Shown piece after piece: positions 5,836 through 64,000 of a DNA stretch of 64,000 nt (within the stretch, counting starts at the first letter, position 1; the number at the start of each line of letters is the position of its first letter). The position numbers were made by a program, and so were the translations under genes. The notes beneath the pieces are model-generated. The model was not told the origin of the DNA. It saw only the letters and a program-made list of their open reading frames with translations, and did no database searches. The stretch spans positions 69,618 through 133,617 of the forward strand of contig CAVVFV010000010.1 of NCBI GenBank assembly GCA_963747695.1. Direction: 5' to 3'. Source of the DNA: Candidatus Falkowbacteria bacterium (GTDB lineage: Bacteria > Patescibacteriota > Patescibacteriia > Patescibacteriales > WJLG01).

Positions 5836-5913
5836 TGCTATATTGCTATATTGCTATATTGCTATATTGCTAACGATTTCAAAATCGTTGCGCAACAATA
5901 TAACAATATGACA
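5836..5913. repeat. Intergenic palindrome, CTATATTG-word family (F1), copy 1
   Basis: (GCTATATT)x3 arm, inner hairpin AACGATT-TCAA-AATCGTT (5864-5881), and right arm CGTTGCGCAACAATATAACAATATGACAAT. It abuts the secA ATG directly. Confidence 0.8.
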
Positions 5914-5933
5914 ATATAACATTGATTTTATTT

Positions 5934-11122: not shown

Positions 11123-11193
11123 CTTGCTATATTGTTATATTGCTATATTGTTAATCTTTTTTCCGTCGTGCAACAATATAACAATATGACAAT
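11123..11193. repeat. Intergenic palindrome, F1 family, copy 2
   Basis: It fills the entire murG-murC spacer. The right arm CGTCGTGCAACAATATAACAATATGACAAT is nearly identical to copy 1. Confidence 0.8.
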
Positions 11194-12268
11194 TTAGCAA
11201 TTTAATATTCCCCGAATAATCTTTTCTACTTCTTCATTCGCCCCTTCCTTGAACAGCGTTTTGATATTTCTTCCCAACTTTTCTCGCTCCGCCGGATTAT
11301 CAAGCAAGTATTTGACGGCCGCGACCAGGGCATCACTGGATAATATCTTCTGATTAAGAACGGCGGCCGCATTATTTTCGATGAGCAGGGCGGCATTATC
11401 TTCCTGGTGGGAATCAGGCATCGGAATGACGATCGCCGGCTTGCCCGCCGCCGCGATTTCCGACAAAGTTCCGACGCCGGCGCGGCAAACGATCAAGCTG
11501 GCCGCCTTCATTGCGTCGGCGACTTGTTCTGAGTTTAAAAATTCATAAGGATGATAGTTGGCGTGCCGCTTGGCAATCATTTTGCCTTTGCCGGTCGAGT
11601 GGATGACCTGGCAAAAAGTAACCAAATTTTCCAAGCCCTGTTCGACCATTTTATTGACCCCCTCCGCCCCCGTTCCTCCGCCGAGGATAAATACCACCGG
11701 TAAATCATTATTCAAGTTGAATTTTTCCTTAATTGAAAATTGAGAATTGGGAATTGAAAATTTCCGATTGGGGTTTCCGGTCCAAACTGCTTTCTTGCCA
11801 TAATCGTCCAACGATTTTTCAAACGTCACGGTGATGACTCGGGCGAACGGTGCCATTAATTTATTAGCCAGCCCGGGTCGGATATCCAGTTGATGAACCA
11901 AGACCGGGACACGCAAAAGCCAGGCGGCCCAAACCACGGGCACGGCCACAAAACTTCCGGCTGATAAAACTAAGTCCGGTTTTTCTCTTAGGATTAAAAA
12001 AAATGCCTGCCAAAAACCCAGCTTGATTTTGGCGACATCCCAAAAATTATGCCAGTCGAAATAACGGCGCAATTTTCCGGCGGCGATGGCGCGATAGCCG
12101 ATGCCCGCCTCTTTAACCATTTGTTTCTCGACGCCGTTCTTCGTCCCGACAAACAAAAACTCAAAACTCCCCGCCGCGTCGCAGCTCCTCGGCGAGCGCC
12201 AATAAGGGCGAAACTGACCCGGCTGTTCCTCCGCCGGTCAAGATGATTTTCTTAGCTTTCTGCTCCAT
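11194..12268 (-). pseudogene. murG: murG (lipid II GlcNAc transferase) interrupted by a single-base frameshift
   Basis: ATG 12268 opens MEQKAKKIILTGGGTAGSVSPLLALAEELRRGGEF, then TGA at 12163-12161. The rest of MurG (FVGTKNGVEKQMV... 320 aa) continues in another frame from 12156. Removing one base from the A4 run (12163-12166) or the C4 run (12169-12172) restores a normal MurG N-terminus. Confidence 0.8.
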
Positions 12269-12844: not shown

Positions 12845-13996
12845 TCAATTGCGGGCGGCGCTGGTTGTTTGCCGACTGATATTAGCTACTATTCCCAAGC
12901 CGATTAGAGCCGCCATCAAGCTTGACCCACCCTGGGAAACCAGCGGCAGCGGCACGCCGGTCATCGGAATCAAGCCGATGACGCCGCCGACATTGAAAAA
13001 AGTCTGGATGAAGAGCCAGGAGGCCACGCCGATGCAGAGCAGTTTGCCGAAAAGATCAGGCGCATACTTTGCCGCAACAATGATCCGGTAAAAAAGGAAA
13101 AGATAGATTAACAGGAAGGCGGTGTCGAAAACAAAACCGATCTCCTCCGCCATCACGGCGAAGATCGAATCGCCGTAAACTTCGGGCAGATAATTAAATT
13201 TTTGTCTGGATTGACCCAGCCCGCGGCCGAAAATCCCGCCCGACCCGACAGCAATCAGCGATTGATTAAGCTGATAGCATTGGGCTTTCGCGCCCGCGGC
13301 CGTGTCGAAGGCGCATTCGAATCTTTGCATCTGATAAGGCTTGAAATGGATCATCACCACCAAGGCCAGCGCCGCCAAAAGTACCACAATGACCAGATGC
13401 GATATTTTCCCGCCGCCGACAAAATAAACAACCAGGGAAACGACGCCGATAATCGCCAGGGTACCGAAGTCCGGCTGTAACATCATCAAAGCGGCAATCA
13501 CCAATAACACCACCAGGAAAGGCCCGATACCCTGTTTGAAATCAGAAAGGTCTTTCCGCCGCGCTTCCAGCCAGGCGGCGAGATAAATCAGGAAAAATAT
13601 TTTGACGAACTCCGCCGGCTGGAGGGAAAAACCGAAAATATCCACCCAGCTTCTGGCCGTCTCGCCCTTAAGCGCCAGACTGGGAATAAAAACCAATGAT
13701 AAAAAGATGCATGAAAGGATCAGAAAGAAAAAAGCGTATTTGCGCCAGAGATGATAATCGATCTTATAACAAACGTAAAACATCGCCAGGCCGATCAGCG
13801 CGACTACCAATTGCCGCTTGAAGAAATAATCGCTCTCGCCGTAACGAGTGTAAGCGACAACTGCCGAAGCCGACGAAAGGAAAATCAGGCCGAGGACGAC
13901 CAAAAGCCCGATGGTGATCAAGAGTTTCTTGTCGGGCGCATGGGTTACGGCCGTATTTCTTTTTTGGATGGGATGACCCACTTTAAACATTAACAT
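12845..13996 (-). CDS. ftsW: SEDS-family peptidoglycan polymerase FtsW/RodA
   Basis: 383 aa and polytopic; QPAEFVKI, LPEVYGDSIFAVMAEEIGF, PLVSQGGSS. Confidence 0.9.
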   Translation of the reverse strand: MLMFKVGHPIQKRNTAVTHAPDKKLLITIGLLVVLGLIFLSSASAVVAYTRYGESDYFFKRQLVVALIGLAMFYVCYKIDYHLWRKYAFFFLILSCIFLSLVFIPSLALKGETARSWVDIFGFSLQPAEFVKIFFLIYLAAWLEARRKDLSDFKQGIGPFLVVLLVIAALMMLQPDFGTLAIIGVVSLVVYFVGGGKISHLVIVVLLAALALVVMIHFKPYQMQRFECAFDTAAGAKAQCYQLNQSLIAVGSGGIFGRGLGQSRQKFNYLPEVYGDSIFAVMAEEIGFVFDTAFLLIYLFLFYRIIVAAKYAPDLFGKLLCIGVASWLFIQTFFNVGGVIGLIPMTGVPLPLVSQGGSSLMAALIGLGIVANISRQTTSAARN

Positions 13997-13999
13997 GAT

Positions 14000-14099
14000 G
14001 CGAATACTACGAATTTTTCGCGAATACCGCGAACATTTTAACGAATTTCAATTCGCTTCGCGGATTTTGTGGTATTCGCGTAAAATTCGTTGTATTCGT
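14000..14099. repeat. Intergenic palindrome, CGAATAC-word family (F3), copy 1
   Basis: About 48-nt imperfect arms (GCGAATACTACGAATTTTTCGCGAATACC...TTTAACGAATT / reverse complement) centred at 14049-14051, between mraY and ftsW. Confidence 0.8.
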
Positions 14100-17061: not shown

Positions 17062-18249
17062 CTAATTAACTAATATACCAAGTAATATTTTGCTAATTTT
17101 GTCTCTTGAATATTTTTCTTCTATCAATTTACTTGCCGCCGCCCCCATCTCCTTGCGCCTCGCCGGGTTTTCCATTAAAAATTTTATTTTATTTTTTAGA
17201 TCCGCGGCGTCACCGGGTTCAACTAAAAAACCTTCTTGACCGTCGGTAAAAACTCGGCGCACGCCGGGTAAAGTCGAGGCAATCACCGGTAGGCCGGAGG
17301 CCATCGCCTCCAATAAAACGATGCCAAACGCTTCACCGCGATTGACCGAAGGCAGAACCAAACAATCAGCCTGCTGATATTTTTTCGGCAATTCTTCATC
17401 GGTAACTCGTCCGGCAAAAATTACTTGATCGTTTAACCCCAGCTCGCTGACGCGCGTTTCGTAGCAAGGACGCAAATCCCCCGCCCCGACGATTTCCAAT
17501 TGCCAATTAGACTTTTCTTTGGCCAAGGAAGCGAGCGCGTCAAACAAGACATCGAGGCCTTTGAAAAAGTGGGCGCGATCCAGGCCGCCGACAAAAATTA
17601 TTTTAAAAATTGCGTTTCGCGGCTCTTCCGCTTCAAAATAGGGAGAAAGATCTTCGTGCTCGAGAGCCGGCTGGAATCTGAGCGTATCGACGCTAAAAGG
17701 AACTTCCCTGATTTTGCCTTTGTTAACCGACCAGATCGGCGGCGGCAGATTTGCTTCGGCGTAATCCCGCGAGGCGCAAATTATCAAATCTGCTGACTTA
17801 AAAAGCGCTGGAGCAATAAGGCGGGAGGGCAGCGATAAGAGCCGTAACAGCGGCGAAGAAAATTCCGGAGTCATATGAAAATGAATGATCAAACGGGTCT
17901 TGCTCCGCCAAACGAATTTTTTCAACAGCCAGATAATTTCCGCGGCGCCGAAAAAAGGATAATGCAGATAAACCAGATCATAACCGTTGAGCCGCCAGAA
18001 TAATTGCGGCAAAAATCCCCCATTGCCGATTCGGGGAAATCCTCTTAGAAAAATTGCCTTTGCCTTTTTCCCGCTGTCCCACACCCCGTCCTCGCGCGGC
18101 GCGAGTCCACCCCTCTCGAGAGGGGACTTTAAAGCGAAGGTTTCAACCGAATGCCCGGCCGATGACAAAATACGCGCCGTTTCCAGCGCGCTCGTTCCAA
18201 TCCCCCCGATATTCGGCGGATAAACACAAACAATTTGAGCGATCTTCAT
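17062..18249 (-). CDS. Glycosyltransferase family 4 (GT-B) carrying an in-frame repeat-like insert
   Basis: MKIAQIVCVYPPNIGGIGT..., PSVNRGEAFGIVLLEAMASGLPVIA. The ATG at 18249 is preferred because the ORF-track TTG at 18291 runs into the F3-like spacer. Confidence 0.85.
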   Translation of the reverse strand: MKIAQIVCVYPPNIGGIGTSALETARILSSAGHSVETFALKSPLERGGLAPREDGVWDSGKKAKAIFLRGFPRIGNGGFLPQLFWRLNGYDLVYLHYPFFGAAEIIWLLKKFVWRSKTRLIIHFHMTPEFSSPLLRLLSLPSRLIAPALFKSADLIICASRDYAEANLPPPIWSVNKGKIREVPFSVDTLRFQPALEHEDLSPYFEAEEPRNAIFKIIFVGGLDRAHFFKGLDVLFDALASLAKEKSNWQLEIVGAGDLRPCYETRVSELGLNDQVIFAGRVTDEELPKKYQQADCLVLPSVNRGEAFGIVLLEAMASGLPVIASTLPGVRRVFTDGQEGFLVEPGDAADLKNKIKFLMENPARRKEMGAAASKLIEEKYSRDKISKILLGILVN

Positions 18250-18302
18250 AATTATAACGCGAATACCACGAATTATACGCCAATACCGCAAACAAATAAT
18301 TA

Positions 18303-26440: not shown

Positions 26441-26472
26441 GCGTTTCAAAAATATAACAATTAATTACCTTG

Positions 26473-26772
26473 TAGCGCGCATTGGAAAATTTTGGATAAG
26501 ACGCGTAGCGTATCACCGCCGCTGGCGGGACAAGGAAGCCGTGCAAAATTGCGTTGCTTGAGGAGGCGCCGCGCCGACGAGGTTAGCAATTTTGCTAGGT
26601 TTCATAGTGGAGCGTCCCAAAATTTGTCCAGCTCGCAGTTTTCTTGCCCCGTCATTTTTGCGGGGTTGTGTCACTTTTTTTAAAAAAAGTGGCGAAATAA
26701 TATTGTCAGTAATAGACCCTCCCCGCCTCGCTCACGCTCGGCACCCCTCCCGAAGAGGGGACAAAATTTTTT
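26473..26772 (+). repeat. Structured repeat, copy A (core 26473-26693) plus GC-rich module 2 (26702-26772)
   Basis: Stems S1 26484-26495/26617-26629, S2 26535-26540/26598-26603 (one G.U if the plus strand is the RNA), S3 26543-26552/26586-26595. A/T palindrome at 26671-26693, then hairpin CCCCTC-CCGAA-GAGGGG (26744-26760) plus a T-rich run. The strand assignment is tentative. Confidence 0.75.
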
Positions 26773-31039: not shown

Positions 31040-32047
31040 TTACTTCGTTGCCAAAATCGATCTTTTATAAGAATCCAAATTATCCAGTGCTATACCAGTG
31101 CCTTTGGCGACGCAAAGCAACGGTTCGTCGGCGACATAGACCGGGACGCCGATGGTGCGCGAAACCAGCTGGTCGATATTCCGCAAGAGCGAACTGCCGC
31201 CAGCCATCACGATCCCCTTATCCATGATATCGGCGGACAATTCCGGCGAGGTGTCATTCAAGACTTTTTTGATCGCCGCAATGATCGCCTCCAATTCATT
31301 CTGGATCGCTTCGGTGACATCATCACTGATCACATTGATGCTCCGGGGCAAACCGGAAACGACATCCCGCCCGCGGACTTCCATCGTTAATTTATTTTTC
31401 AAATACAAGGCGGCGCCGACGTTGATCTTTATTTCTTCCGCCGTGCGCTCGCCGATCGAGAGATTGTATTTGCGGCGGATATGCTCAGCGATCGCCACGT
31501 CGAATTTATTGCCGCCGACTTTCACCGAATTGACGCAAACGATGCCGCCCAAAGAGATGACCGCCATTTCCGCGGTGCCGCCGCCGATGTCCACGATCAT
31601 ATGGCCGGAAGACGAACCGATGGGAATATCCGCGCCGATCGCCGCGGCGATCGGTTCCTTAATTATGTAAGCGGCTTTGGCGCCGGCGGAGATGGTCGCT
31701 TCGATTACCGCGCGGCGTTCAGTCGAAGAAATTCCGGCCGGCACGGCCACCATCACTTCCGGACGGAACAAACGAAAATTTCCCAAAGTCTTATTAATGA
31801 AATATCTCAACATCGCTTCGGTGGTACGGTAATCAGCGATCACCCCGTCCTTTAATGGTTTGACGGCAATAATATTATCAGGCGTGCGGCCGAGCATTTC
31901 CTTGGCTTCATTGCCAACCGCCAAAATTTTCCGATCATCAATCGAAACAGCGACCACGGACGGTTCGTTAATTACAATGCCCTTCCGGGGCAGATGCACC
32001 AGAGTGTAAGTCGTACCTAAGTCAATTCCGATTGATTTGATAAACAT
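31040..32047 (-). CDS. mreB: Rod-shape determining actin homologue MreB
   Basis: 335 aa; IGIDLGTTYT, MIVDIGGGTAEMAVISLGG, GIVMAGGSSLLRN. Confidence 0.95.
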   Translation of the reverse strand: MFIKSIGIDLGTTYTLVHLPRKGIVINEPSVVAVSIDDRKILAVGNEAKEMLGRTPDNIIAVKPLKDGVIADYRTTEAMLRYFINKTLGNFRLFRPEVMVAVPAGISSTERRAVIEATISAGAKAAYIIKEPIAAAIGADIPIGSSSGHMIVDIGGGTAEMAVISLGGIVCVNSVKVGGNKFDVAIAEHIRRKYNLSIGERTAEEIKINVGAALYLKNKLTMEVRGRDVVSGLPRSINVISDDVTEAIQNELEAIIAAIKKVLNDTSPELSADIMDKGIVMAGGSSLLRNIDQLVSRTIGVPVYVADEPLLCVAKGTGIALDNLDSYKRSILATK

Positions 32048-32054
32048 GATTAAA

Positions 32055-32133
32055 TTGTTATATTGCTATATTGTTATATTGCTATTTTTAAAATCGTTGC
32101 GCCAACAATATGGCAATATAACAATATGACAAT
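32055..32133. repeat. Intergenic palindrome, F1 family, copy 3
   Basis: TTGTTATATTGCTATATTGTTATATTGC ... CGTTGCGCCAACAATATGGCAATATAACAATATGACAAT. It ends 7 nt from the mreB ATG. Confidence 0.8.
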
Positions 32134-32212
32134 CTTTTTTTGGATAGCTAATAGCCCCGACACTTTACGGAAAATTAAAAATGGAAAATTAAAAAAACTT
32201 TTGTCTTTAACC

Positions 32213-40078: not shown

Positions 40079-40130
40079 ACTTTATTATTATAGCAAACTA
40101 TAAGACATAATCCGAACTTTGACACATAAT

Positions 40131-40237
40131 GAGAATACTACGAATTGTTCGCGAATACTACAAATAGATTTAACGAATTTTAATTGAATAATTCGTTAAA
40201 TAGTTCGCTGTATTCGCGAAGAATTCGTAGTATTCGC
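40131..40237. repeat. Intergenic palindrome, F3 family, copy 2
   Basis: GAGAATACTACGAATTGTTCGCGAATACTAC...TTTAACGAATT / AATTCGTTAAA...GTATTCGCGAAGAATTCGTAGTATTCGC. The arms closely resemble 14000-14099. It lies in the divergent spacer. Confidence 0.8.
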
Positions 40238-40252
40238 ATCATGTTTTTTGCA

Positions 40253-42905: not shown

Positions 42906-43093
42906 ATTATCGATATCTTAGCATCTTTGATTCGATTTTGGCAAAAAATGTGAGGAGAGTAAATTAGTTGATTAGTTGATTGGGTACTTAGTTGTAAATT
43001 TTTTTAAGCTCTCAGTTAAAAAAACGTCAGCGAAAAGCTAACGGTTTTTTATATACGGTAATCAAATAATTATACCAAAAATAAATTTCCTTA

Positions 43094-43246
43094 AAGCGAG
43101 CATTGAAAAATTTCGGAATAAGCACGAGTGTAGAAGCCGTGCAAAATCGCGATGTCCGAAGTCCAGCGATTTTGCTAGGCTTCTTAGCGAGTGCGCCGAA
43201 ATTTTTCCTGCGAGCAATCATTTGTGCTTTTTTTTAAAAAAGTAGC
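43094..43246 (+). repeat. Structured repeat, copy B (minimal form)
   Basis: S1 43105-43116/43196-43207, S2 43133-43138/43178-43183, S3 43141-43150/43166-43175, a 15-nt apical loop, and an A/T palindrome at 43225-43246. The strand is tentative. Confidence 0.75.
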
Positions 43247-43251
43247 AAATA

Positions 43252-44634
43252 CTATATAATTTCCTTGAGTCCCTTGATCATCTTTTGCGCCAATTCATCA
43301 GCCTTGTCCGGCGAATCGCTTTCCGCGTAAATACGGGCGATCGGCTCGGTATTAGATGACCTGACCTGCACCCATTCGTGATCAAAATCAATCCGCAAAC
43401 CATCGACTCTATCGATTGAAAAATCGCGATATTTTTCTGCCAAGCTTGAATAGATCGGCGGCCAATCGATCTTGCCGGCCAATTCTATTTTATTCTTCGC
43501 GATAAAATAAGCCGGGAAAGTCTTTCTTAATTCCGAACATTTACCTTTAAAATCAGCCAGTCCGCTTAAAAATAAAGCGATGCCAACCAGCGCGTCCCGG
43601 CCGTAATGCAACTCGGGATAGATCACTCCGCCATTACCTTCGCCGCCGATAATCGCTTTCACTTCTTTCATTTTCGCCACCACATTAACTTCGCCCACGG
43701 CCGAAGAAAAATATTTCCCGCCGTGTTTTTCGGTGATATCTTTTAGCGCTCGGCTGGATGACAAATTGGAAACAGTATTGCCCGGACCGCTTTTGCTCAA
43801 AACATAATCAGCTACGGCGACCAAAACATATTCTTCGTTAAAAAAACTCCCGTCTTCACTGACTATCGATAAGCGGTCGCCGTCGGGATCGACCACGATG
43901 CCAAGATCGCATTTTTTTTCCACCACCAGAGCGGACAAATCGGCCAAATTTTTATCAAGCGGCTCCGGCGAATGGGCAAAACGTCCGGACTGATCGCAAT
44001 TCAATTTCTCGATTGCGTTTATGCCCAATCTTTTTAGAAGTTCAGGGATGTCTCGTCCGCCGACCGAATTTATTCCATCGACTGCAATTTTTAAATCACG
44101 CATGGCGATCGCCGGCCGATCTACCAAACCCAAGGCTAAAATTTTATCCAAATGTTGATTTAACAAAAAATCATCGCAGATTATTTTACCAAAATCTTTT
44201 TCCGCGGCTAAATCAAATCGCGAATCTTCAGCAATCGTTAAAACTGATTCGCCTTCAACCTTGGACAGGAATTCTCCGCTCGGCCCCACCAACTTCAAAC
44301 CGTTCCAGCCATTGGGATTATGCGAAGCAGAAATAATAATACCGCCGGAGGCCTTACTGGATATGACTGCCATCTGTAAGCCGGGAGTTGACAATAGACC
44401 AGCGTTGATAACTTCGACGCCCAAACTTACTAAGGCATTAGCCGCCAAATTTTGATAAATTTCCCCGGAAGGACGCGCATCGCGGCCGATGATCACTTTG
44501 GGCCGCTTGGATTTATCTTTCAAAAATTGGCCGAAAGCCATGACAAATTTAACCGTCTCAAGCGCTCCCAGGCCTTCACCGGTTCGGCCGCCGATCGTGC
44601 CGCGGATGCCAGAAATTGATTTGATCAATGTCAT
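43252..44634 (-). CDS. Phosphohexomutase (phosphoglucosamine mutase / phosphomannomutase-like)
   Basis: 460 aa; SGIRGTIG, active-site loop ISASHNPNGWNGLK, VDPDGDRL. Confidence 0.88.
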   Translation of the reverse strand: MTLIKSISGIRGTIGGRTGEGLGALETVKFVMAFGQFLKDKSKRPKVIIGRDARPSGEIYQNLAANALVSLGVEVINAGLLSTPGLQMAVISSKASGGIIISASHNPNGWNGLKLVGPSGEFLSKVEGESVLTIAEDSRFDLAAEKDFGKIICDDFLLNQHLDKILALGLVDRPAIAMRDLKIAVDGINSVGGRDIPELLKRLGINAIEKLNCDQSGRFAHSPEPLDKNLADLSALVVEKKCDLGIVVDPDGDRLSIVSEDGSFFNEEYVLVAVADYVLSKSGPGNTVSNLSSSRALKDITEKHGGKYFSSAVGEVNVVAKMKEVKAIIGGEGNGGVIYPELHYGRDALVGIALFLSGLADFKGKCSELRKTFPAYFIAKNKIELAGKIDWPPIYSSLAEKYRDFSIDRVDGLRIDFDHEWVQVRSSNTEPIARIYAESDSPDKADELAQKMIKGLKEII

Positions 44635-46033: not shown

Positions 46034-46119
46034 AATCACCTCCTTGGTTAATGAAATATCTCCAAACTATTTCTCTATCTTTTATCATATTTATGAATCA
46101 AAGTCAACGCTTTAAAAAA

Positions 46120-46207
46120 GGTCACAGTCCGCGGCGAGACTGTGACCGAACCAAAGACATTTTTTATTAATTACCGTAAGCGTCGCGGTCCGAGATGAGA
46201 CTGCGAC
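46120..46207 (-). terminator. Two GC hairpins of the GCAGTC...GACTGC family downstream of the AT-rich cassette
   Basis: 46182-46207 reads GTCGCGGTCCGAGATGAGACTGCGAC and 46120-46147 reads GGTCACAGTCCGCGGCGAGACTGTGACC. The latter is followed on the minus strand by TTTTTT (46119-46114). Confidence 0.65.
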
Positions 46208-46216
46208 AGAATCAAC

Positions 46217-46983: not shown

Positions 46984-47664
46984 TTATTTATGAAGTTTAT
47001 CCAATATTTCAATTCTTCTCATAAAATTAGGTAAATCTAAATCGATTAAACTCGAACCTTTCCCCTTTTGGTATATTTGACGAAGATACAAAGATACCGA
47101 AAATACGTATAGGTCTAAAAATTTATTCATTTCGTTTGGAAGATTTAAAGTTTTCACCGCGATGATAGATAGCGGATTTAATCCTCTTTCGTCCGAAGAT
47201 ATTGGCATCCAATAAATAAGCAAGGGGTTAATTTTAAAAGTCTCATATCCTGCTGGCCTTTTCATCGGAATCAAAACTTTCGTCACTCCGTTCGGATGTT
47301 CCTTTTCGCCGGACAGATCAGTTTTTAATTGACCTTTCCAATAATGTTCAACTATTTTTTTTATTTCATCGTCGTTCGCATCTGATCTTAGTCTTGCACC
47401 TCCAATAGCAGTCGCGGCCCAATTTTTTATTTCGCATTGAAGCAATTGACTACCATCAACGATCCACCTATCCAATCTGTGTCCTCTTTTGGTTCCCTGA
47501 GTAACAGGGTCATCAAGAAGTTTTACTTCATTATTTCTAAAATGTTTGTAAACAGCGGCATTCAACTCCTCGCCCATCATTGATATAATGGCATTTGCAT
47601 CTCCCTTTTTAGAATCAACTTGGTCGTCAAAAAAATCAAGCAAATCTTTAATATTTAATTTCAT
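46984..47664 (-). CDS. Putative PD-(D/E)xK restriction-endonuclease-fold protein, first gene of the cassette
   Basis: 226 aa. A helix-borne E (GEELNAAV), then LDRWIVDGSQLLQCEIKNW, which gives D-x12-E-x-K. Confidence 0.5.
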   Translation of the reverse strand: MKLNIKDLLDFFDDQVDSKKGDANAIISMMGEELNAAVYKHFRNNEVKLLDDPVTQGTKRGHRLDRWIVDGSQLLQCEIKNWAATAIGGARLRSDANDDEIKKIVEHYWKGQLKTDLSGEKEHPNGVTKVLIPMKRPAGYETFKINPLLIYWMPISSDERGLNPLSIIAVKTLNLPNEMNKFLDLYVFSVSLYLRQIYQKGKGSSLIDLDLPNFMRRIEILDKLHK

Positions 47665-47679
47665 AAATTTTATTCTTTA

Positions 47680-48005
47680 TAGCGAGCATTGAAAAATTTT
47701 GGAAATGGCGCGCAGCGCAGAAACCGTGCAAAATTGCGTTGTCCGAAGTCCCTCACCATTTCTGTTATCAAACAGAAATGGTGAGGGGCAAGTATAGCAA
47801 TTTTGCTAGGTTTCATAGCGGAGCGGCCCAAAATTTTTCCTGCGAGCAGTTTTTGCGCCACTTTTTTAAAAAAGTGGCAAAGATTTTTGAAATATTGTCG
47901 GGAATAGACCCACCCCACCTCGCCGGGCTCGGCACCCCTCCCAAGAGGGGAATTTTTTACACACCCCGGCCTTCGGCCACCCCTCTTAATAGAGGGAACT
48001 TTATA
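47680..48005 (+). repeat. Structured repeat, copy C (core 47680-47878) plus module 2 (47894-47959) and an extra GC hairpin (47961-48005)
   Basis: S1 47691-47702/47828-47839, S2 47720-47725/47809-47814, S3 47728-47737/47797-47806. The apical insert is a perfect 16-bp hairpin (47751-47786). The palindrome is CCACTTTTTTAAAAAAGTGG, followed by CCCCTC-CCAA-GAGGGG plus a T run. The strand is tentative. Confidence 0.8.
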
Positions 48006-48084
48006 TTTTAGTATTATCACTAATTCCCTAAAATAGCAAAAAGCCCTCTTTAAAAGGCTTTTTGAGTATAAAAAAACATCATTA

Positions 48085-48199: not shown

Positions 48200-48422
48200 T
48201 AATGATGTCTTTCGTATGTCAGCGCAAGAACGCTGACAACTGAATACTATAGATAATCTTGTAAAGAAATATGTCGTTCGTATTTTTCATCTTAGAAACA
48301 AAAATGTGGGAAAATCAAATGGTTTATTAGTATCCCTCCGCTCAATATCTTACGATACTTACACGTAGGACCTATCAAGGCAGTATTCTCCTGCCAACCT
48401 GTGAAACCTAATCTTAGAGACA

Positions 48423-48453
<31 letters not shown>

Positions 48454-48622
48454 AAAACCGAAGGTAGCTACTCGGCAATGCCCCTGGCGGGACAGTCGAT
48501 ACACCAGAGCTTCGTTAATCCCGGTCCTCTCGTACTAGGGATTAGACTCTTCAAGTTTCCGCGACCATAGTAGATAGGAGACCAACCTGTCTTACGACGG
48601 TTTGAACCCAGCTCGCGTGCCT

Positions 48623-48653
<31 letters not shown>

Positions 48654-49206
48654 GCTTCTACACCCCCAGGATGAGACGGGCCGACATCGAGGTGCCGAAC
48701 CTGGTCGTCGCTGTGGACGCTTGGACCAGACTAGCCTGTTATCCCCAGAGTAGCTTTTATCCGATGAGCTTCCACCATCCTATATTGGATGGTCGGATCA
48801 CTAAGTTCTGCTTTCGCAACTGCTCGACGTGTCAGTCTTGCAGTAAAGCCGGCTTGTGCCTTTGCGCTATCTCCCGGGTTTCCATTCCGGGATAGCCGAC
48901 CTTTGTAAACGCCTCAGTTACTTTTTATGAGGCATCCGCCCCAGACAAACTACCCGCCAGACACTGTTCCCCGGAAGGATTCACTTCCTAGGGTAAGAAT
49001 TTAGAACAAACAAGGGTGGTATCTCACTGGTGCCCGAAGGCTCCCACCTATTCTGAACATGCGTATCCCAAATCCAATATCAAGTTATAGTAAAGCTTCA
49101 TGGGGTCTTTTCGTCCAGCTATGGTTAATGAGCATCTTCACTCATCCTGCAATTTCGCCGAGTGCATCGTTGAGACAGCGCCCAACTAGTTACGCCATTC
49201 AAGCAC

Positions 49207-49246
<40 letters not shown>

Positions 49247-49250
49247 GATT

Positions 49251-50005
49251 CATTGATGTTAAACCTCTCTTAGGTTCCTCTGATCGAGGCTTTATGTCTC
49301 CATAAAGATCGGACTATATCATCCGCGGTTTTCCGGACGGAAAGCGCGCGGTTCGGCGTGTAGTCTCTGAGGATTATCTACTCGCGATTCTTCAAAATCG
49401 CTTTGGTTATATTTTCTTTTTCTTCCGCGGCCGGCATTTAATTCTTCTCTTAATGCGACGATTCTTTTTAAACCGTCTTCGTTTAAATGCTCTTTGCTGA
49501 AAACTAATTCAGCGATCCGGCTGAAGATTGAAAAATTTTTCTTTTTCGTCTGGGAAAGGAAATAAAATTTCCGAAAAAACGGAATCACTTTCTCTTGGAT
49601 GGAAAGCGGATTGCTGACGACATACATATGCAATCCGTCGCGCCGTTCGACTAATCTTCCGCAGCCTAAAATCTTTTTAAACTGCGAGAGGATATAACTT
49701 TCCTTTTGGGAAACGTTAAATGTCAGAACGACTTGCCAGCCCATTTTATGGTCCGGCCTCTTTCTCAAAGAGACATTGAAACTTCCTTCACCATCGGTAA
49801 AACCGGCGAAATAGTAACCTATTTCCGGTTTTATGTTGTTTAACCAATCCTGATTCATAGATTCTTTCCTGCGGATTGTCCGCCAATGACTTTTAAAGTC
49901 ATGTTAACTTTTTGATTTTTACTGCGGATTAAATTTTCCACGAGTACAAAAAGCTTGGGCGGATGTTCCCGCATTTAGCCAAATTTTTTAACTACAATTC
50001 TGTTC
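49251..50005 (-). mobile_element. Group I intron in 23S rRNA helix 69 (E. coli U1917/A1918 site)
   Basis: The 5' exon ends in U (50006). Intron nt 11-16, GUAGUU (49990-49995), pair with exon AACUAU to form P1 with a U.G wobble. The last intron nt is G (49251). The ligated exons restore a helix 69 loop UAACUAUAA. Confidence 0.88.
49319..49858 (-). CDS. LAGLIDADG homing endonuclease (single-motif, I-CreI size class), intron-encoded
   Basis: 179 aa with an ATG start. It carries the motif YFAGFTDGEGSFNV and lies wholly inside the intron. Confidence 0.88.
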   Translation of the reverse strand: MNQDWLNNIKPEIGYYFAGFTDGEGSFNVSLRKRPDHKMGWQVVLTFNVSQKESYILSQFKKILGCGRLVERRDGLHMYVVSNPLSIQEKVIPFFRKFYFLSQTKKKNFSIFSRIAELVFSKEHLNEDGLKRIVALREELNAGRGRKRKYNQSDFEESRVDNPQRLHAEPRAFRPENRG

Positions 50006-51444
50006 ATAGTTATCGCCGGCGTTCATCCACGCTTCGGTTCAAGGCTTCATCCCGCTTACGCGGGATTAACCCCTCTCCTTAACGTTTGGACACTGGCCAG
50101 GCGTCACTCCCTATACATCCTCTTACGAGTTAGCAGAGAGCTGTGTTTTTGGTAAACAGTCCGTTGGGCTCTTTCGCTGCGGCCCATCTTGCGATGGGCA
50201 GGCCTTCTTGCGAACTTACGGCCGATTTTTTGCCGAGTTCCTTAACGATGATTCTCTCGTGCACCTTAGTCTTCTCGACTCGCCAACCTGTGTCGGTTTT
50301 AGTACGGGTACCGTTTCCTTAACCCTAGAGAGTTTTCTGGGAAGTCCCTCCCCGCAAATTGACGATCTATTGCTAGACCATCTGCAAACAACCTCTTGAA
50401 ATATCGCTCCGGATTTGCCTGGAGCTATTCTTGAAGCAATTAGCGCATATACCAATATCGCGCTTGCGGTTCGAAACTTCGTTATCCCATTGGAAAAAAA
50501 CGGTAGTGCTGGAATATTAACCAGCTTATCCATCGGCTACGCCCCCATTACAAAGGCCTCGTCTTAGGACCGACTAACCCTGGGCCGATTTACGTTGCCC
50601 AGGAAACCTTAGGCTTTCGGTGGGCGGGGTTTTAACCCGCCTTTGTGCTACTCATGCCAACATTCTCTCTTCTTGCCGCTCCACCACGTCTCGCGGCGTG
50701 GCTTCAGCGCAGGCAAGAATGCTCCTCTACCGATCCATAATAATAAATTACTATGAATCCCGTATCTTCGGTAATATACTTAGCCCCGATAAGTCTTCGG
50801 CGCGAAACAACTTGACTAGTGAGCTATTACGCTATCTTTAAAGGATGGCTGCTTCTAAGCCAACCTCCTAGTTGTCGCAGTCACGACACCACCTTTTACA
50901 CTTAGTATATATTTAGGGACCTTAGATTACGATTTGGGCTGTTTCCCTTTTGACCGATGAAGCTTAGCCCCCATGGTCTGACTCCCGAGTTATGTTGAAT
51001 GGTATTCGGAGTTTGGTTAAGAATAATATCTTGCGACTTACCCTCATTCAGTGCTCTACCCCCATTCATAAACACTCGAGGCTAGCCCTAAAGCTATTTC
51101 GAGGAGAACCAGCTATTGCCTAGTTCGATTGAAATTTCATCCCTAACCACAAATCATCCCCTAGTGTTGCACGGCTAGTGGGTTCGGTCCTCCATCCGTC
51201 TTTCGACGAACTTCAACCTGTCTGTGGTTAGATCACCAGGCTTCGGGTCTTATACGCGCGACAAACGGGCTATTAACCCTCGCTTTCACTACGCCTGCTC
51301 CGCAGAGCGGATTAGGCAAGCCGCGCGCAATAAACTCGTTGGCTCATTCTTCAATAGGCACGCCGTCACTCTGGCTTGCGCCAAAGCTCCGACTCCTTAT
51401 AAGTATATGGTTTCAGGTACTATTTCAACTCCCTCACCGGGATG

Positions 51445-51481
<37 letters not shown>

Positions 51482-52693
51482 ATCATAAAAAGTATTTAGT
51501 CTTGGATCATAGTCGACCCGGATTCACGCGGGATTTCACGAGTCCCGCGCTACTTAAGAATAATAAAGACGGTTCAATAATGCGTGTCGCGTACGGGGCT
51601 ATCACCCTCTTTGGCCTAGCTTTCCAGCTAGCTTCTGCTACACATTATCACATCCCGCTTCGTCCATCCCAAGGGACAAAAGATACTATTCTTGCAACTA
51701 CCCGTGAACATGTGGACTTGGATCCTTCCTAATCCCATACCCGAAGGCACAGGATTATTCAGTTCATGAGATTTAGACTGGTCCCCTTTCGCTCGCCACT
51801 ACTTGGGGAATCAGGTTTTCATTAAAATCCCGAAAGTAAACGGAACTTTAATGAAAACCTTTTTTATTAATTTCTTTTCCTCCGGCTACTAAGATGTTTC
51901 AGTTCACCGGGTAATCTACCTCTCTTGCGAGAGGTCATCCTGTCTTCAACAGGATAGGTTTCCCCATTCGGAAATCCTCGGATCAAAGGTTGCTTGCCAC
52001 CTCCCCGAAGCTTATCGCAGGCTGCTACGTCCTTCATCGTCTTTTTATGTCAAGGCATCCACCATACACCCTTAATGAGATTTTCCCACACTCCTATTTC
52101 TAAGAGTGTGTTGCTCATTTTTATCTTTAACTTTTTAACTTACTCTAAACTTTTTGGAAGTTTATAGTTCATTAACTTTTGCTGACGTTTTTAGACCTCT
52201 AATTAATTTTTCTTTACCTCTTTGTCCCACGAACGCGCGGGACAAAAATTATCTAAGTATTCAGTTGTCAAAGTTCTTTACGAAAACAGTATTTTAGAAA
52301 ACGATTTTTAAATCATTTTCTAAATTCTAATTTCGTTAAAAAATATTCGTGATATATTTGTTCGTAGTATTCGGATATTTCGTAGGTTCGGATTATATTT
52401 TGGCATTTAAAAAAACCGCTTATCAAGCGGTCAGCAAAACTTGCGGGCAAGTCATTTGTTAACTGCTTGAAATAAGAGAAGTTAATAAGCGATTTATCAT
52501 ATGGTTTGCCTTTGGGACTTTCGCCGAATGCCCTATTCGGCCTAAATCTCCAAAATTCGGCAAATTTATTTTAAAATTTTTTAGCCGATATGATTATATC
52601 GCCCAAAAAATTTTCAAATAAATTTGGCTCGAATTTTGTAAATTTATGCTCGAATAAGCAATCGACGACAGCCCCTGTTTTGTGATGTTATAA

Positions 52694-53947: not shown

Positions 53948-54643
53948 TTACTGCCAACTCTTAACCTCTAATCCATTCTTCGCTGCTTCCACTTCGGCTT
54001 CCTGCTTAGAGGAACCGTGGCCGACAGCGATGAGTTCTTCGGAAACATATAAACCGATATCGAAGATCTTGGCATGGTCCGGCCCTTCTTCTTTCAAGAC
54101 GCGATAATGAGGAGTGATGCCGAATTTTTCCTGCGCGATTTCCTGAAATTTCGACTTGGGGTCGAAATATAATTCATTTTTTAAAATATAATCAAGCTTG
54201 GTGATGATTTTGTTGGTGATAAACTCCTTAGCCTTTTCCGTACCCTGATCTAGATAGATCGCGCCGATCAGCGCTTCCACCGCATCAGCCAAAATAAATT
54301 GCCGGGCTTTGGAGTTGCTGTCTTTAGCTTCCCCGCGCGATAAAAGCAGATTGTCTTCGATTCCCACTTCGGCCGCGATTACGGCGAGCATTTTGGCATT
54401 AACCAGACTGGCGCGCCAGTTGGTCAAGTCACCTTCTTGTTCCTTGGGATATTTTTTATAGAGGAATTCAGTGACGATCAATTCCAAAACCGCGTCGCCC
54501 AAAAATTCCAAACGTTCGTTATGATTGAGATAAAAATCCGAATGTTCATTGAGATAAGAGCGGTGGACCAAGGCTTGCTGCAGCAAATCCTTGTTTTTGA
54601 AGACGACACCGATTCGCCCTTCGAGAGATGAGAGATCACTCAT
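53948..54643 (-). CDS. rnc: Ribonuclease III
   Basis: 231 aa with the signature NERLEFLGDAVLE and a C-terminal dsRBD. Confidence 0.93.
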   Translation of the reverse strand: MSDLSSLEGRIGVVFKNKDLLQQALVHRSYLNEHSDFYLNHNERLEFLGDAVLELIVTEFLYKKYPKEQEGDLTNWRASLVNAKMLAVIAAEVGIEDNLLLSRGEAKDSNSKARQFILADAVEALIGAIYLDQGTEKAKEFITNKIITKLDYILKNELYFDPKSKFQEIAQEKFGITPHYRVLKEEGPDHAKIFDIGLYVSEELIAVGHGSSKQEAEVEAAKNGLEVKSWQ

Positions 54644-61031: not shown

Positions 61032-64000
61032 TTATTTAATTTTAGCAGCTTGCAAGAAAATACTCAAATCAGAAATGTCGATTTTTCCGTCGCCGTTCAA
61101 GTCCGACCGCGGATCTTTTTTTTGCCAAAGAATCAGAAAAATACTCCAATCCTGCACGTCGATCTTCCCGTCATTATTGAAATCGGCGCTCGGCAAAGTG
61201 GACGAGGAAACGATAAAATTCCTGGTCAAGGAATATTCGCCGGCGACACCGGTAATATTATCGATCTGACGGACTTTAACCGTGTGGGTGCCGTAAGGCA
61301 GCGCCGCCGTATTGACGAGGATCTGATAGGCGCCGGCGGAATCGGAAGTGACGCTGTAAGTCTGGCCATTGTCCAAAAGTACCGTAACCTGGTTATTCGG
61401 CGCCGCATAACCGATCACCTTGATAAAATCTCCCCTGGTCAAAACCGAGCGTACGAGATCAATCGTCGGCGGAATGATTACCTTGTCGATTTCCACCGTC
61501 GTAAGATTGAAACTGACATTGAAGATCCGGGCTTGCGTCTCTCGTCCGTCTTTATCCTTGGCCAATAAGCTGAAAACATCGTCTCCGGCGGAAAAACCGG
61601 TAACCGTAATACTGAAACTGCCGTCGCTGGCAGCGCTGCCGGTTTCTTTCAAGACGTTCATCCCTTGGCTCACTTGCGAAACCAGAATCTGAGCGGCGGC
61701 AAAAGCTTCTCCTTTGATAGTCAGTGATAACGGCTGCGGAACCGAACGGCTGCTGACCGGCGCCGGTTGGCCGCCTGACGATCCGCCCACCGCCGCAAAT
61801 ATGACGTTTTGTATGGAACTGACATCAAGGCCGGTGGCCTCGGTGTCGGAGAGCGAAAGATTTACCGTTTCCGCGACCGCATCGGTGATAACTTTCACGC
61901 CAACGCCATTGACGATACTGACCAGTCCGCCGCCGCTGGCTGCGCCGCTGGTGACCAGCGTCACTCCTTGCTCGTAAGAATTGTCGACATTGCCCAAATT
62001 ATCCTGCGCCTCGATCTCCACGGCGATATGGTCGCCGGCTCTGCCGTTCGCCGGGTTGATGATGACGAATTTCGTGGCGGTCACCGGAATAAAAGTTACG
62101 GTAACCGAATCCGAGCCATCAACGATACCGGCGACTCCGTCGGGAGCGACTGAATTGTCCGAAGCAGTGACTGTCCAGATCCCGGCCGTATTGTCATAAT
62201 ACCAGAAATTTGCCGTTGAACTTGCATTGGCAATCGACACCGAAGTAATTTGACCGCCCAGCGTGGCCGCGTCAAAAAACTTGGTAGTCGTCCCGGTGGA
62301 ATTGGAATAAAGATACACGACATTGGTACCGGCGGTTACCGGATTAGAAAATTGATCGCGCCGCGAAACTTCGAAGCCGAGCCTGGTGCCCGCCGTCATA
62401 TTGCCCGGATTATTCAAAACAAATTCCGTGACCGCGCCGGACGCGACCGCCAAAACATCCTGGGCATCAAGGATGCCGGTCGGGCCGTCCGGAGCGGTTG
62501 AGTTGTCGGAAACCCTAATCTGCCAATTTCCCGATTTTTCATCATAGTACCAAAAATCCGCCGCGGAATTTCCCGGTGAAATATTAATCAAGCTAATCGC
62601 GCTGCCGCCAATCGCCGCATCATAAAACCTTTTGTTGATGCCGTTGGAATCGGAGTAAAGATAAACCGCGGTATTGCCGGTCGTGATCAGATTGCCGAAT
62701 TGATCTTCGCGCTTAACCGTATAATCAGCCCGAGTTCCGGCAACGATTCCCGCCGGATTACTGAGAATGAATTTATAAACCGGCCCGGCGGCAAAAACCA
62801 AATCCTGAGTCGAGCTGATATCCAGCCCGGTCGTTTGCGTGTCAGACAAAGAAAGATTAACCGTTTCCGCAACCGTATCCGTAATCACCGCCGTCCCCAC
62901 TCCATTGACGATATCCACCAACCCTCCGCCGGTGGCCGCGCCGCTGGCCAAAAGTGTTACGCCATTTTGATAAGAACCGTCGACATTATTATTATTGTCC
63001 ACTGCCTTGATGGTAACGTTGATATGGTCGCCGACCGTGCCATCGATCGGATTAACAATAATAAATTTAGTGGCGACGATCGGCACGGCTGAAACGTTAA
63101 CCGTGTCCGTGGCGTCAATGATGCCGGCTGCTCCGTCGGGCGCCGCGGAATTGTCTGAACCGGTTACCGTCCAAGCACCGACATTCTGATCAAAATACCA
63201 AAAATTTGTTTCAGAATTTCCATCAGTGATGCTAACCGAACTGACCGGGCTGCTGGTGCCGTCAGTCGAGTAGAAAATCGGAGCGGTCGGAGTAGAATTG
63301 GAAAAAAGATATACATTATCCTGGCCGGCAGTTACCAAATTAGCAAATTGATCCTCGCGCGTTACCGTATAACCCAATAATGTTCCGGCCGTCATATCGC
63401 CCGGATTATCCAAGAGATATTTATAAGTGGCCGCGGCCGATACGGTTACTGAAACCGAAGCATCGATAATTCCGGTAATACCGTCCGGTGCCGAGGAATT
63501 ATCAGAAGCCGTGATGGTCCAATTACCGGCCTTGTCATCATAATACCAAAACGCCGCGGTGGAAGATCCGTTGCCAAGCGCTGCCGAGGTGATTGCAGTG
63601 CCGGCGGCGGCCGCATCATAAAATTTATAATTTGCTCCGCTGGAATTGGAGTATAAATAAACGGTCTCGCTGGTAGAGGTGACGCTATTGCCATATTGAT
63701 CAAGACGGCTGACGAGATAGCCTTGTCTTGTCCCGGCGGTCATCCCACCGGGATTATTCAAAGTATATTGAGAAGTCGGTCCGGGTATTACTTCGATCGC
63801 CGCGGCAGCATCCTGGATTCCGGCGTTCCCGTCCGGAGCGATTGAATTATCGGAAGCGGTGATAATCCAGTTACCCGCCTTTTCATCATAATACCAAAAA
63901 CCGGCGGTCGTATTCCCGCTGCTGATGATGACCGAAGTAATTAGATTTCCATTGACTCCGGCATCATAAAAAGCCTGATGAACGCCATTGGAAGTTGAAT
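61032..64000 (-). CDS. Giant repeat surface protein ending in a type I dockerin (partial; N-terminus beyond right edge)
   Basis: The ORF-track start at 63761 is TTG inside a repeat. Hand translation of 63762-63998 stays open and continues the repeat (…FWYYDEKAGNWIITASDNSIAPDG…). The C-terminus is DFNNDGKIDVQDWSIFL...DLNGDGKIDISDLSIFL. Confidence 0.85.
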   Translation of the reverse strand, partial: STSNGVHQAFYDAGVNGNLITSVIISSGNTTAGFWYYDEKAGNWIITASDNSIAPDGNAGIQDAAAAIEVIPGPTSQYTLNNPGGMTAGTRQGYLVSRLDQYGNSVTSTSETVYLYSNSSGANYKFYDAAAAGTAITSAALGNGSSTAAFWYYDDKAGNWTITASDNSSAPDGITGIIDASVSVTVSAAATYKYLLDNPGDMTAGTLLGYTVTREDQFANLVTAGQDNVYLFSNSTPTAPIFYSTDGTSSPVSSVSITDGNSETNFWYFDQNVGAWTVTGSDNSAAPDGAAGIIDATDTVNVSAVPIVATKFIIVNPIDGTVGDHINVTIKAVDNNNNVDGSYQNGVTLLASGAATGGGLVDIVNGVGTAVITDTVAETVNLSLSDTQTTGLDISSTQDLVFAAGPVYKFILSNPAGIVAGTRADYTVKREDQFGNLITTGNTAVYLYSDSNGINKRFYDAAIGGSAISLINISPGNSAADFWYYDEKSGNWQIRVSDNSTAPDGPTGILDAQDVLAVASGAVTEFVLNNPGNMTAGTRLGFEVSRRDQFSNPVTAGTNVVYLYSNSTGTTTKFFDAATLGGQITSVSIANASSTANFWYYDNTAGIWTVTASDNSVAPDGVAGIVDGSDSVTVTFIPVTATKFVIINPANGRAGDHIAVEIEAQDNLGNVDNSYEQGVTLVTSGAASGGGLVSIVNGVGVKVITDAVAETVNLSLSDTEATGLDVSSIQNVIFAAVGGSSGGQPAPVSSRSVPQPLSLTIKGEAFAAAQILVSQVSQGMNVLKETGSAASDGSFSITVTGFSAGDDVFSLLAKDKDGRETQARIFNVSFNLTTVEIDKVIIPPTIDLVRSVLTRGDFIKVIGYAAPNNQVTVLLDNGQTYSVTSDSAGAYQILVNTAALPYGTHTVKVRQIDNITGVAGEYSLTRNFIVSSSTLPSADFNNDGKIDVQDWSIFLILWQKKDPRSDLNGDGKIDISDLSIFLQAAKIK

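Follow-up and report, generated by a model that had tools for sequence, protein, structure and literature searches.

The stretch of DNA analysed here, hereafter the window, is 64 kb of a Patescibacteria-type chromosome on which nearly all genes lie on the minus strand. It carries the 23S and 5S rRNA genes (both minus strand), cell-wall synthesis genes, the genes for SecA and MreB, and genes for type IV pilus ATPases, RNase III (53948-54643) and NusB, while no tRNA or tmRNA was found in the window. Three of its intergenic gaps are occupied by copies, designated A, B and C, of a long hairpin-forming repeat, which is the subject of this study. Copy A has a subtilase gene on one side and an HD-domain gene on the other, both on the minus strand, copy B lies 1 nt past the stop codon of a minus-strand phosphoglucomutase-family gene, and copy C lies between the 5S rRNA gene, which has its own terminator, and a gene for a protein of 226 amino acids to which no function was assigned. 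The intervals between the copies (4.6 and 16.6 kb) contain several housekeeping genes. A sequence-only reading that preceded this work had described the repeat as three copies in the same orientation, and the repeat finder independently lists both of its halves as three-copy families (D11 and D15); all 14 stem positions and sequences given in that reading are identical to the window. Neither mismatch searches with up to three mismatches nor a covariance model detected a fourth copy in the 64 kb. The notion of a three-copy element did not survive, as the repeat turned out to be a high-copy family dispersed over many genomes.

Each copy consists of two hairpins, of which the first, HP1, is long and imperfect and the second, HP2 (GCCAC-T6/A6-GTGGC), is A/T-rich; all parts are given here on the plus strand. 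The order of parts proposed earlier was correct and the proposed ends were not: the unit runs slightly past both, with a conserved AATAAATTTCCTT block on the left and a AAAGATTTTTGA tail after the A/T palindrome on the right. Copy C begins with an A/T-rich left block (47665-47681; family consensus AATAAATTTCCTTRTAGCG) that includes a -10-like TAAATT, as determined from the flank profile of 43 copies and a TANNNT position count; the divergent 226-amino-acid gene has its start codon (47664) at a distance of 1-17 nt from this block. Its HP1 (47682-47847; fold of -99.1 kcal/mol, with pair counts in agreement) is built from a GC/GCA stem that closes it and has a tandem G.A loop, the stem S1, a small stem, the stems S2 and S3, and an apex. 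This apex bears the perfect 16-bp hairpin (47751-47786) that had been noted before, which is private to copy C; other copies carry other modules in the same slot, and the apex is indeed free to vary. HP2 of copy C (47848-47890), supported by its fold, a terminator-like call and the covariation of HP2 pairs, comprises a T-run, GCCAC-T6/A6-GTGGC and AAAGA, together forming an extended A/T hairpin, and then TTTTTGA.

Copies A and B vary this plan. In copy B, a left block AATAAATTTCCTTAAA (43080-43095, from the flank profile) precedes a minimal HP1 (43096-43215; -66.1 kcal/mol) with a 15-nt loop and no apical hairpin, and the degenerate HP2 (43220-43251; GTGC...GTAGC with a bulge) abuts the phosphoglucomutase-family stop codon at 43252-43254. 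Copy A has a left block AATTAATTACCTTGTA (26459-26474) about 19 nt from the start of the HD-domain open reading frame (ORF), and an HP1 (26475-26636) with three G.U pairs on the plus strand, where the fold reaches -92.2 kcal/mol versus -72.4 kcal/mol on the minus strand. It also contains two small GC hairpins. One, TCACCGCCGCTGGCGGGACAAG (26513-26534), is inserted in the left internal loop and is shared with the orthologous, internally deleted copy L114; the other, CCCCG...CGGGG (26646-26665), is inserted in the linker between HP1 and HP2, where L114 has a different 20-nt palindrome. HP2 of copy A (GTCAC-T7/A7-GTGGC; 26668-26698) was assigned from its fold and pair counts.

We found that the stems of these hairpins are kept paired. 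Compared with dinucleotide shuffles, the plus-strand folds have z-scores of -8.1 (B), -10.3 (C) and -4.3 (A), none of 200 shuffles being as stable, and the plus-strand fold is more stable than the minus-strand fold in all three window copies. A MAFFT alignment of 22 copies yields 45 pairs with RNAalifold, 17 of which covary, and 97.9% of its cells are standard pairs. In a model-based alignment of 47 copies, a procedure that leans toward structure, 99.0% of 2103 cells are paired and 30 of the 45 pairs show double changes. The covariation score of the 47 copies is 0.243, versus 0.03-0.06 when the partners are slid by 1-3 columns, and none of 500 shuffles of this alignment reaches any observed covariation measure, with the reservation that the copies are phylogenetically related and the events not independent, so that such p-values overstate independence. 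The compensatory double substitutions that the sequence-only reading had seen between copies B and C are confirmed, and the additional copies keep the stems paired in both alignments. Nine of the ten HP2 pairs covary (GCCAC/GTGGC, GCTAC/GTAGC, GCAAC/GTTGC, GTAC/GTAC and GTTC/GAAC), and at least five versions of S3, mutually compensated, exist across the family.

Several of the apparent compensations are swaps of whole arm-module blocks (AAATTTTGG...GACGC / GCGTC...CCAAAATTT versus AAATTTCCG...ATCAC / GTGAT..GGAAATTT), and chimeric arms occur in L057 and in the internally deleted L114. The asymmetric internal loops of HP1 (ATTG versus TCC(A/T), GT/TA, and 17 versus 14 nt) are kept in about 47 copies from many genomes, and small-hairpin insertions are confined to the apex, two internal loops and the HP1-HP2 linker, never falling within a stem. 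Conserved loops and insertions that avoid the stems are what would be expected from selection on a folded molecule, and template-switch 'perfection' of a quasi-palindrome would give the reverse. The covariation seen in both alignments likewise upholds the earlier proposal of selection on a folded single strand, as opposed to the decay of a duplicated spacer.

The folded strand can be identified as well. Among the non-Watson-Crick cells on the plus strand, G.U outnumbers A.C by 24 to 8 (binomial p 0.007, for copies that are not independent and of which one chimeric copy gives three G.U cells), and a tally of the per-copy list gives the same ratio, 5:2, for copies whose two neighbours both lie on the opposite strand, (-,-), and for those whose neighbours are both co-oriented, (+,+). 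The plus-strand fold is the more stable one in 42 of the 47 copies, by a mean of 5.8 kcal/mol (Wilcoxon p = 7e-8). Because this strand asymmetry is independent of context, the element's own plus strand is the selected fold, and not the strand transcribed for its neighbours, in agreement with the strand deduced beforehand from copy A. Pairing in the hairpins is strongly selected, and their fold is that of the plus strand whatever the orientation of the adjacent genes.

The family is a previously undescribed one in a clade of the ultra-small Patescibacteria; our literature searches found no description of such a repeat in this group. An exact-pattern census of 185,579 species-representative genomes returned nine further copies in three metagenome-assembled genomes (MAGs), six of them in the Patescibacteria MAG STD1_31, and a scan of metagenomes with a right-arm pattern returned 101 stretches that include about 35 true copies, mostly from a few peat or sediment samples. 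Two more copies came from a relative, L112, and 47 distinct copies were aligned to the model built here. The densities are three copies in the 64-kb window, two in 18 kb of L112, and six exact-pattern matches in about 188 kb of STD1_31 contigs, from which we infer roughly one copy per 20-30 kb and, for a genome of an inferred size of about 1 Mb, tens of copies per genome. As would be anticipated for a repeat, short-read assemblies of the same organism are interrupted within copy C and at copy A. Two copies (L002 and L006, on DATJQC010000029.1 and DATJQC010000018.1) were retrieved from a MAG labelled Candidatus Nanoarchaeia; over the 500-nt flanks that were compared, these contigs are 99.8-100% identical to Ga0335071 metagenome contigs, and the bin is probably contaminated or mislabelled.

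Searches of phage and plasmid collections and of IMG/VR gave no match, the single viral match being a chance one that was also found in the metagenome scan, and no ORF is conserved across the copies. The earlier statement that the element belongs to no known RNA family stands: with Rfam 15 at the gathering threshold, only the 23S and 5S rRNAs pass in the window, and in E-value mode the top-ranking models are animal miRNA hairpins, chance matches with 26 bits versus a gathering score of 107.

Comparison of related genomes reveals that the locations of the element are unstable. The relative L112 (GCA_028707065.1), which was fetched via a phosphoglucomutase gene 83% identical to that of the window, has the same gene order. 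At site B, the window holds copy B and about 140 nt more, versus a gap of only 42 nt in L112, and the junction shows nothing beyond TTTGCCA-like microhomology. In the slot between a CAP-domain gene and the next gene, whose flanks are almost identical in the two genomes, L112 has a full copy followed by the GC-hairpin unit M3, which is described below, and the window has a different 130-nt palindrome. Downstream of the rRNA operon, both genomes carry a copy in the same relative orientation, of different subtypes and with unrelated genes around it. One orthologous gap contains the element in one orientation in L005 and in the opposite orientation, as a different subtype and with an added M3, in L101 and L087. 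The copy in L114, at the ortholog of site A, has the same private loop insertion as copy A, has lost its centre and combines mismatched arm subtypes; site A is old. Because sites are found empty, differently filled, re-oriented or chimeric, the element behaves as mobile or readily replaced DNA whose copies recombine. Between related genomes, it has been gained, lost, replaced and re-oriented at intergenic sites. Of the features by which the sequence-only reading would have recognized a mere MITE (miniature inverted-repeat transposable element), empty or alternatively filled sites do occur (in L112), and clear terminal inverted repeats with target-site duplications were not found.

Pairs of copies that share a site in different genomes retain their paired positions much better than the unpaired ones. 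Paired positions are 99% and unpaired positions 81% identical in L079/L019 (flanks about 82%), 93% versus 78% in L105/L091 (flanks 85-88%), and 84% versus 64% in L065/L037 (flanks 75%). All differing stem pairs are still paired in L105/L091 and L065/L037, and the single one in L079/L019 is broken. The former two comparisons probably include module replacement, and L079/L019 has the appearance of in-place divergence during which the stems were kept. Selection for future transposition could not keep the stems in this way, which points either to a function at the site itself or to frequent correction by copies that are intact.

The surroundings of the copies are diverse. According to a simple ORF-based neighbour call, 15 of the classified copies lie in (-,-), 11 in (+,+), five in convergent (+,-) and two in divergent (-,+) contexts, and the neighbours are ordinary and mutually unrelated genes, among them those for an epimerase, TypA, Hsp20 and an acetyl-CoA synthetase-like protein. 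No recurrent gene family or transposase was found within 2.5 kb of the 47 copies, and no transposase in the 64-kb window. In six of the 20 copies with a co-oriented upstream gene, this gene ends in a terminator of its own, a hairpin plus T-run located 18-49 nt before the element. We considered that the element might be a simple intrinsic terminator; of the 33 copies that were fully classified, however, 17 have an upstream gene on the other strand, among them copies A, B and C. Mixed orientation, unrelated neighbours and the separate terminators exclude such a role, and the first two likewise exclude a riboswitch or leader of the downstream gene.

In two further cases, inverted copies bracket an accessory gene in the manner of a composite cassette. 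In L067 (684-2474), the bracketed gene is frameshifted and looks SIR2-like by eye, and in L019 (3061-4429) it encodes a membrane-anchored protein of 339 amino acids. A slot between a stop codon and a terminator is occupied by the element in L059 (330-640); in L010 (2990-3700), this slot contains four units of M3, a small ORF that by eye resembles an endonuclease of the DUF559 type, and one more M3 unit. Different inserts seem to gather in intergenic slots.

Conservation of the unit starts about 22 nt 5' of HP1 at AATAAATTTCC (consensus AATAAATTTCCTTRTA) and stops directly after AAAGATTTTTGA, and the TAAATT hexamer ends about 7-9 nt 5' of the first paired G of HP1. On the other side, AAAGA pairs with the T-run preceding HP2, which places TTTTT directly after the extended hairpin; HP2 was scored as terminator-like on the plus strand in a consensus scan, and a flank listing shows a T-run after it in about two thirds of the copies. 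This arrangement suggests a self-contained plus-strand transcription unit of about 190-210 nt that would extend from the -10-like box to HP2 and a U-run.

A second repeat, M3, frequently accompanies the element. It is a GC-hairpin unit of about 50 nt, composed of ACCCNCCCCGTC, a GC hairpin, CCACCCCTCC, a loop and GGAGGGG, and follows about 40% of the copies 45-65 nt downstream and in the same orientation. In the window, two plus-strand units (47903-48009; ACCCNCCCCGYC, hairpin, CCACCCCTCC, loop, GAGGGG and T-run) lie 3' of copy C, the first of which (47903-47958) has a canonical plus-strand terminator shape, as does the unit 3' of copy A (26711-26772). M3 has this shape on the plus strand only, even in the window, where there is no plus-strand gene for it to end. 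It also occurs alone (window 18110-18125), as four tandem copies with a 50-nt period (L010, 3011-3176), and inverted within the L008 and L041 copies of the main element. Since it is found solitary, in arrays and inverted inside other copies, we rejected M3 as a part of the element. With a CGTC tag beside a GC palindrome, M3 resembles a REP sequence more than the main element does, which would predict a RAYT-type enzyme in these genomes.

Taken together, we hold with moderate confidence that the element is a high-copy, non-autonomous, mobile and hairpin-dependent dispersed intergenic repeat, whose plus strand is the selected fold and is probably also transcribed. Its unit is asymmetric and comprises a short A/T-rich left block, HP1 as an imperfect hairpin of about 65 bp with fixed internal loops and an exchangeable apex, a T-run, HP2 and a second T-run. 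The whole unit may propagate via a single-stranded form of the plus strand that is recognized by an enzyme encoded elsewhere, as proposed for REPINs. Transcription could proceed from its own weak promoter (TAAATT) to HP2 and the U-run, giving a hairpin RNA of about 190-210 nt. In the (-,-) context of the window, this RNA would run antisense to every neighbour and diverge from the genes starting 11-19 nt off its left end. Once inserted, the element would form a very stable stem-loop in any read-through transcript and, in plus orientation, could stop transcription.

Several observations weigh against parts of this reading, in addition to the relatedness of the copies mentioned above. Transcription and the RNA ends are predicted from the sequence; no -35 box is conserved, the -10-like box is an A/T-rich sequence within an A/T-rich flank, and roughly a third of the copies, B and A included, lack a good T-run after HP2. 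The stem sequence itself is highly conserved (AAAATTT, GCAAAAT), not pairing alone, and this could reflect recognition of double-stranded DNA. Moreover, the retrieval patterns demanded intact arm motifs, which biases the sample to well-folded copies. With regard to mobility, the difference between the filled and empty states of site B is about 300 nt and exceeds the element, so it could represent a deletion in L112 between TTTGCCA microhomologies. The flank profile of 43 copies contains no terminal inverted repeats, and the single filled/empty pair (site B versus L112) shows no target-site duplication, the other slots holding different inserts. Finally, no autonomous partner was found in the window or around the 47 copies.

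A possible, if doubtful, alternative is a purely DNA-level hairpin transposon, like a giant REPIN or the ends of IS200/IS605, in which single-stranded DNA hairpins would be recognized by a trans-encoded HUH/Y1 (RAYT-like) enzyme and transcription would be incidental. The polymorphism in presence and orientation, the strand-specific fold, compensatory changes as in REPINs (PMC3116915), the lack of a neighbouring transposase and the co-resident, CGTC-tagged and REP-like M3 would all follow from it. Such a transposon, however, leaves the conserved T-runs unexplained, as well as the abrupt stop of conservation past TTTTTGA, and copies at the same site keep their stems far better than their loops or flanks, although selection for transposability cannot preserve resident copies. 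Furthermore, GTAG is found at the foot of HP1 in a minority of copies only, the element strand shows no bias relative to the gene strand (a proxy for replication direction), and about 330 kb of loci, which do not amount to a whole-genome test, contain no RAYT or Y1 gene. A further reading, which we regard as unlikely, is a self-contained small-RNA gene that extends from the promoter box to the terminator, is present in dozens of copies in a streamlined genome of about 1 Mb and is kept intact at each locus by host-level selection. It would imply either trans-acting hairpin RNAs, to which the apical modules (AT-hairpin, GC1, GC2, long or private) give specificities, or RNA-borne spread. We rate mere transcription somewhat higher than such a host-selected RNA function.

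The position of the copies, which fill whole intergenic gaps and in the window lie 1-19 nt from start or stop codons, could also indicate a cis-acting mRNA element of the neighbouring genes, that is, a terminator, an RNase III processing site or a stabilizing 5' or 3' stem-loop that was spread by duplication. The terminator-like HP2 with its U-run, the RNase III gene of this genome and other long hairpin families directly before start codons in the window point in the same direction. We nevertheless judge this improbable: orientations are mixed, even to the point that one orthologous site exists in both, the G.U excess stays on the element's plus strand beside minus-strand neighbours, co-oriented upstream genes often have their own terminator first, and the neighbouring families are unrelated. 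Long inverted repeats are homogenized by template-switch correction and by conversion between arms. A neutral quasi-palindrome kept complementary in this way, with no selection on the fold, would account for the block swaps of whole arm modules between copies, but correction should erase mismatched loops, and asymmetric loops are conserved in about 47 copies; it also predicts no asymmetry between G.U and A.C, observed as 24 versus 8, and does not accord with hairpin insertions that avoid the stems. It is therefore very improbable. The idea of a small protein encoded on one strand draws on a gene for 64 amino acids called across copy B in a public assembly and on the minus strand, more than 90% of which is free of stop codons in 24 of 47 copies. 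It is hardly credible, as copy lengths are spread evenly over the residues modulo 3 (13, 16 and 18 copies), there is no frame that stays open in the majority of copies, and stem variation is compensatory, not codon-periodic.

Patescibacteria are considered to have streamlined genomes with little mobile DNA. In the present case, a single structured repeat appears to make up about 1% of the sequence, beside several other hairpin families that share the intergenic slots. The family is a covariation-rich candidate for a new model of the Rfam type, a clade marker and a cause of assembly breaks in MAGs, and it offers a natural system for the spread of hairpin repeats in which no transposase is recognizable. 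It also raises the question of whether long intergenic stem-loops and RNase III organize transcription in very tight gene arrays. If the copies were small-RNA genes, they would constitute a class of structured RNA that is new, multi-copy and confined to the Candidate Phyla Radiation.

The window contains additional repeats. Tandem 8-nt repeats, (TTGCTATA)n, with an inverted partner form a second family of long intergenic hairpins of 78-90 nt (z -5 to -8; 5821-5925, 11110-11200 and 32041-32135). Read on the minus strand, these hairpins reach to the start codons of secA, a Mur ligase gene and mreB or stop a few bases from them. A third palindromic family, with the motif GCGAATACTACGAATT, is present at 13993-14027, 18252-18286 and 40120-40250; the last of these copies (-55.8 kcal/mol, z -11) occupies the slot that holds the main element in L112. 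A short hairpin repeat, GTCGCAGTC..GACTGCGAC (family D17), has three copies (2428-2463, 46119-46154 and 46180-46215).

Several genes of the window deserve mention. The 23S rRNA gene (48307-52086, minus strand) is 3780 nt long versus a model of 2925 positions and encloses an ORF for a LAGLIDADG endonuclease (49319-49858); its exons are nearly identical in L112, where the inserted blocks are elsewhere, and intron content thus differs between close relatives. The 226-amino-acid protein next to copy C (46984-47664, minus strand) has no Pfam match, and its sequence (…RLDRWIVDG…LLQCEIKNW…) suggests a PD-(D/E)xK nuclease fold. Between the rRNA operon and a nucleotidyltransferase gene, L112 has unrelated genes, which marks this region as variable. 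The phosphoglucomutase-family protein (43252-44634, minus strand) has a handful of Patescibacteria matches at 63-83%, the next closest being Bacteroidota at 55-60% identity, and from these similarities its gene may have been laterally acquired. An ORF of 909 amino acids (61032-63761, minus strand) without a Pfam match contains tandem repeats of 348 nt (116 amino acids; families D3 and D12) and probably encodes a repetitive surface protein.

Among known systems, an integron attC site was rejected, as the copies are dispersed among housekeeping genes in mixed orientation and have no GTTRRRY core at their ends. We dropped the attC, retron msd and 6S-like readings also because no reverse transcriptase or integrase is adjacent and no Rfam match exists; a weak RVT_1 match in the HD-domain gene by copy A (E = 4e-4, below the cut-off) was treated as noise. 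REPINs provide a closer parallel. Compensatory changes across their hairpin are common and have been interpreted as evidence for the hairpin as the replicative unit (PMC3116915), and like the present element they are non-autonomous hairpin units in which selection appears to act on a single-stranded fold and that cluster and nest with other repeats (PMC3116915). REPINs, however, combine short GC-rich REPs into symmetric doublets with an invariant tag, whereas our element measures 200 nt and is A/T-rich and asymmetric (HP1 plus HP2). Its HP1 foot reads GTAG in only about eight of 43 copies and ATAG, ATCG, ATTG or GCTG elsewhere, so no GTAG/CGTC is invariant, and the HP1 arms are not REP-like palindromes themselves. 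No RAYT gene flanked by repeats was found in the loci of 8-18 kb around the copies, to which this search was confined.

With Correia/NEMIS elements and bacterial MITEs, the repeat shares its small size, the lack of an ORF, high copy number, polymorphic sites and possible outward effects on transcription. It is short, non-coding and multi-copy and shows insertion polymorphism between relatives, as MITEs do. Classical MITEs have terminal inverted repeats, a target duplication and a matching resident IS; here, in contrast, the arms are internal with HP2 outside them, and the extreme ends of the unit (AATAAATTTCCTT to AAAGATTTTTGA) resemble each other only weakly (AAAAAT..TTT..CC). With no terminal inverted repeats at its ends, the element does not qualify as a classical MITE, and with no invariant tag and arms that are not REPs it does not qualify as a REPIN.

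The best functional counterparts are structured intergenic repeats of other bacteria. ERIC/IRU and the pneumococcal BOX are intergenic imperfect palindromes that occur in both orientations and whose RNA folds stably (PMC3184786); their conservation between species is unexpected, and they have internal insertions at fixed sites or a modular build (PMC3184786). Our element is likewise an intergenic imperfect palindrome found in both orientations, with insertions at fixed internal sites. It is not homologous to them: ERIC-type repeats have terminal inverted repeats and TA duplications, neither of which was found here, and BOX is assembled from boxA, boxB and boxC modules, unlike the fixed hairpin with a variable apex described above. 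The bcr1 repeat of the Bacillus cereus group, of about 155 bp, is dispersed in intergenic regions, transcribed and not conserved in its distribution between strains (PMC3184786), and compensatory changes keep its double-stranded RNA structure (PMC3184786). Intergenic dispersal, strain-variable locations and compensatory changes are common to bcr1 and our element, although the two share no sequence similarity and belong to different phyla, and bcr1 has flanking 5-bp direct repeats that were not found here. Two hairpins and an exchangeable apex further distinguish our element from bcr1, and its transcription is predicted from sequence features. Without homology to any of these repeats, the element fits the functional class of ERIC/BOX/bcr1-type structured intergenic repeats.

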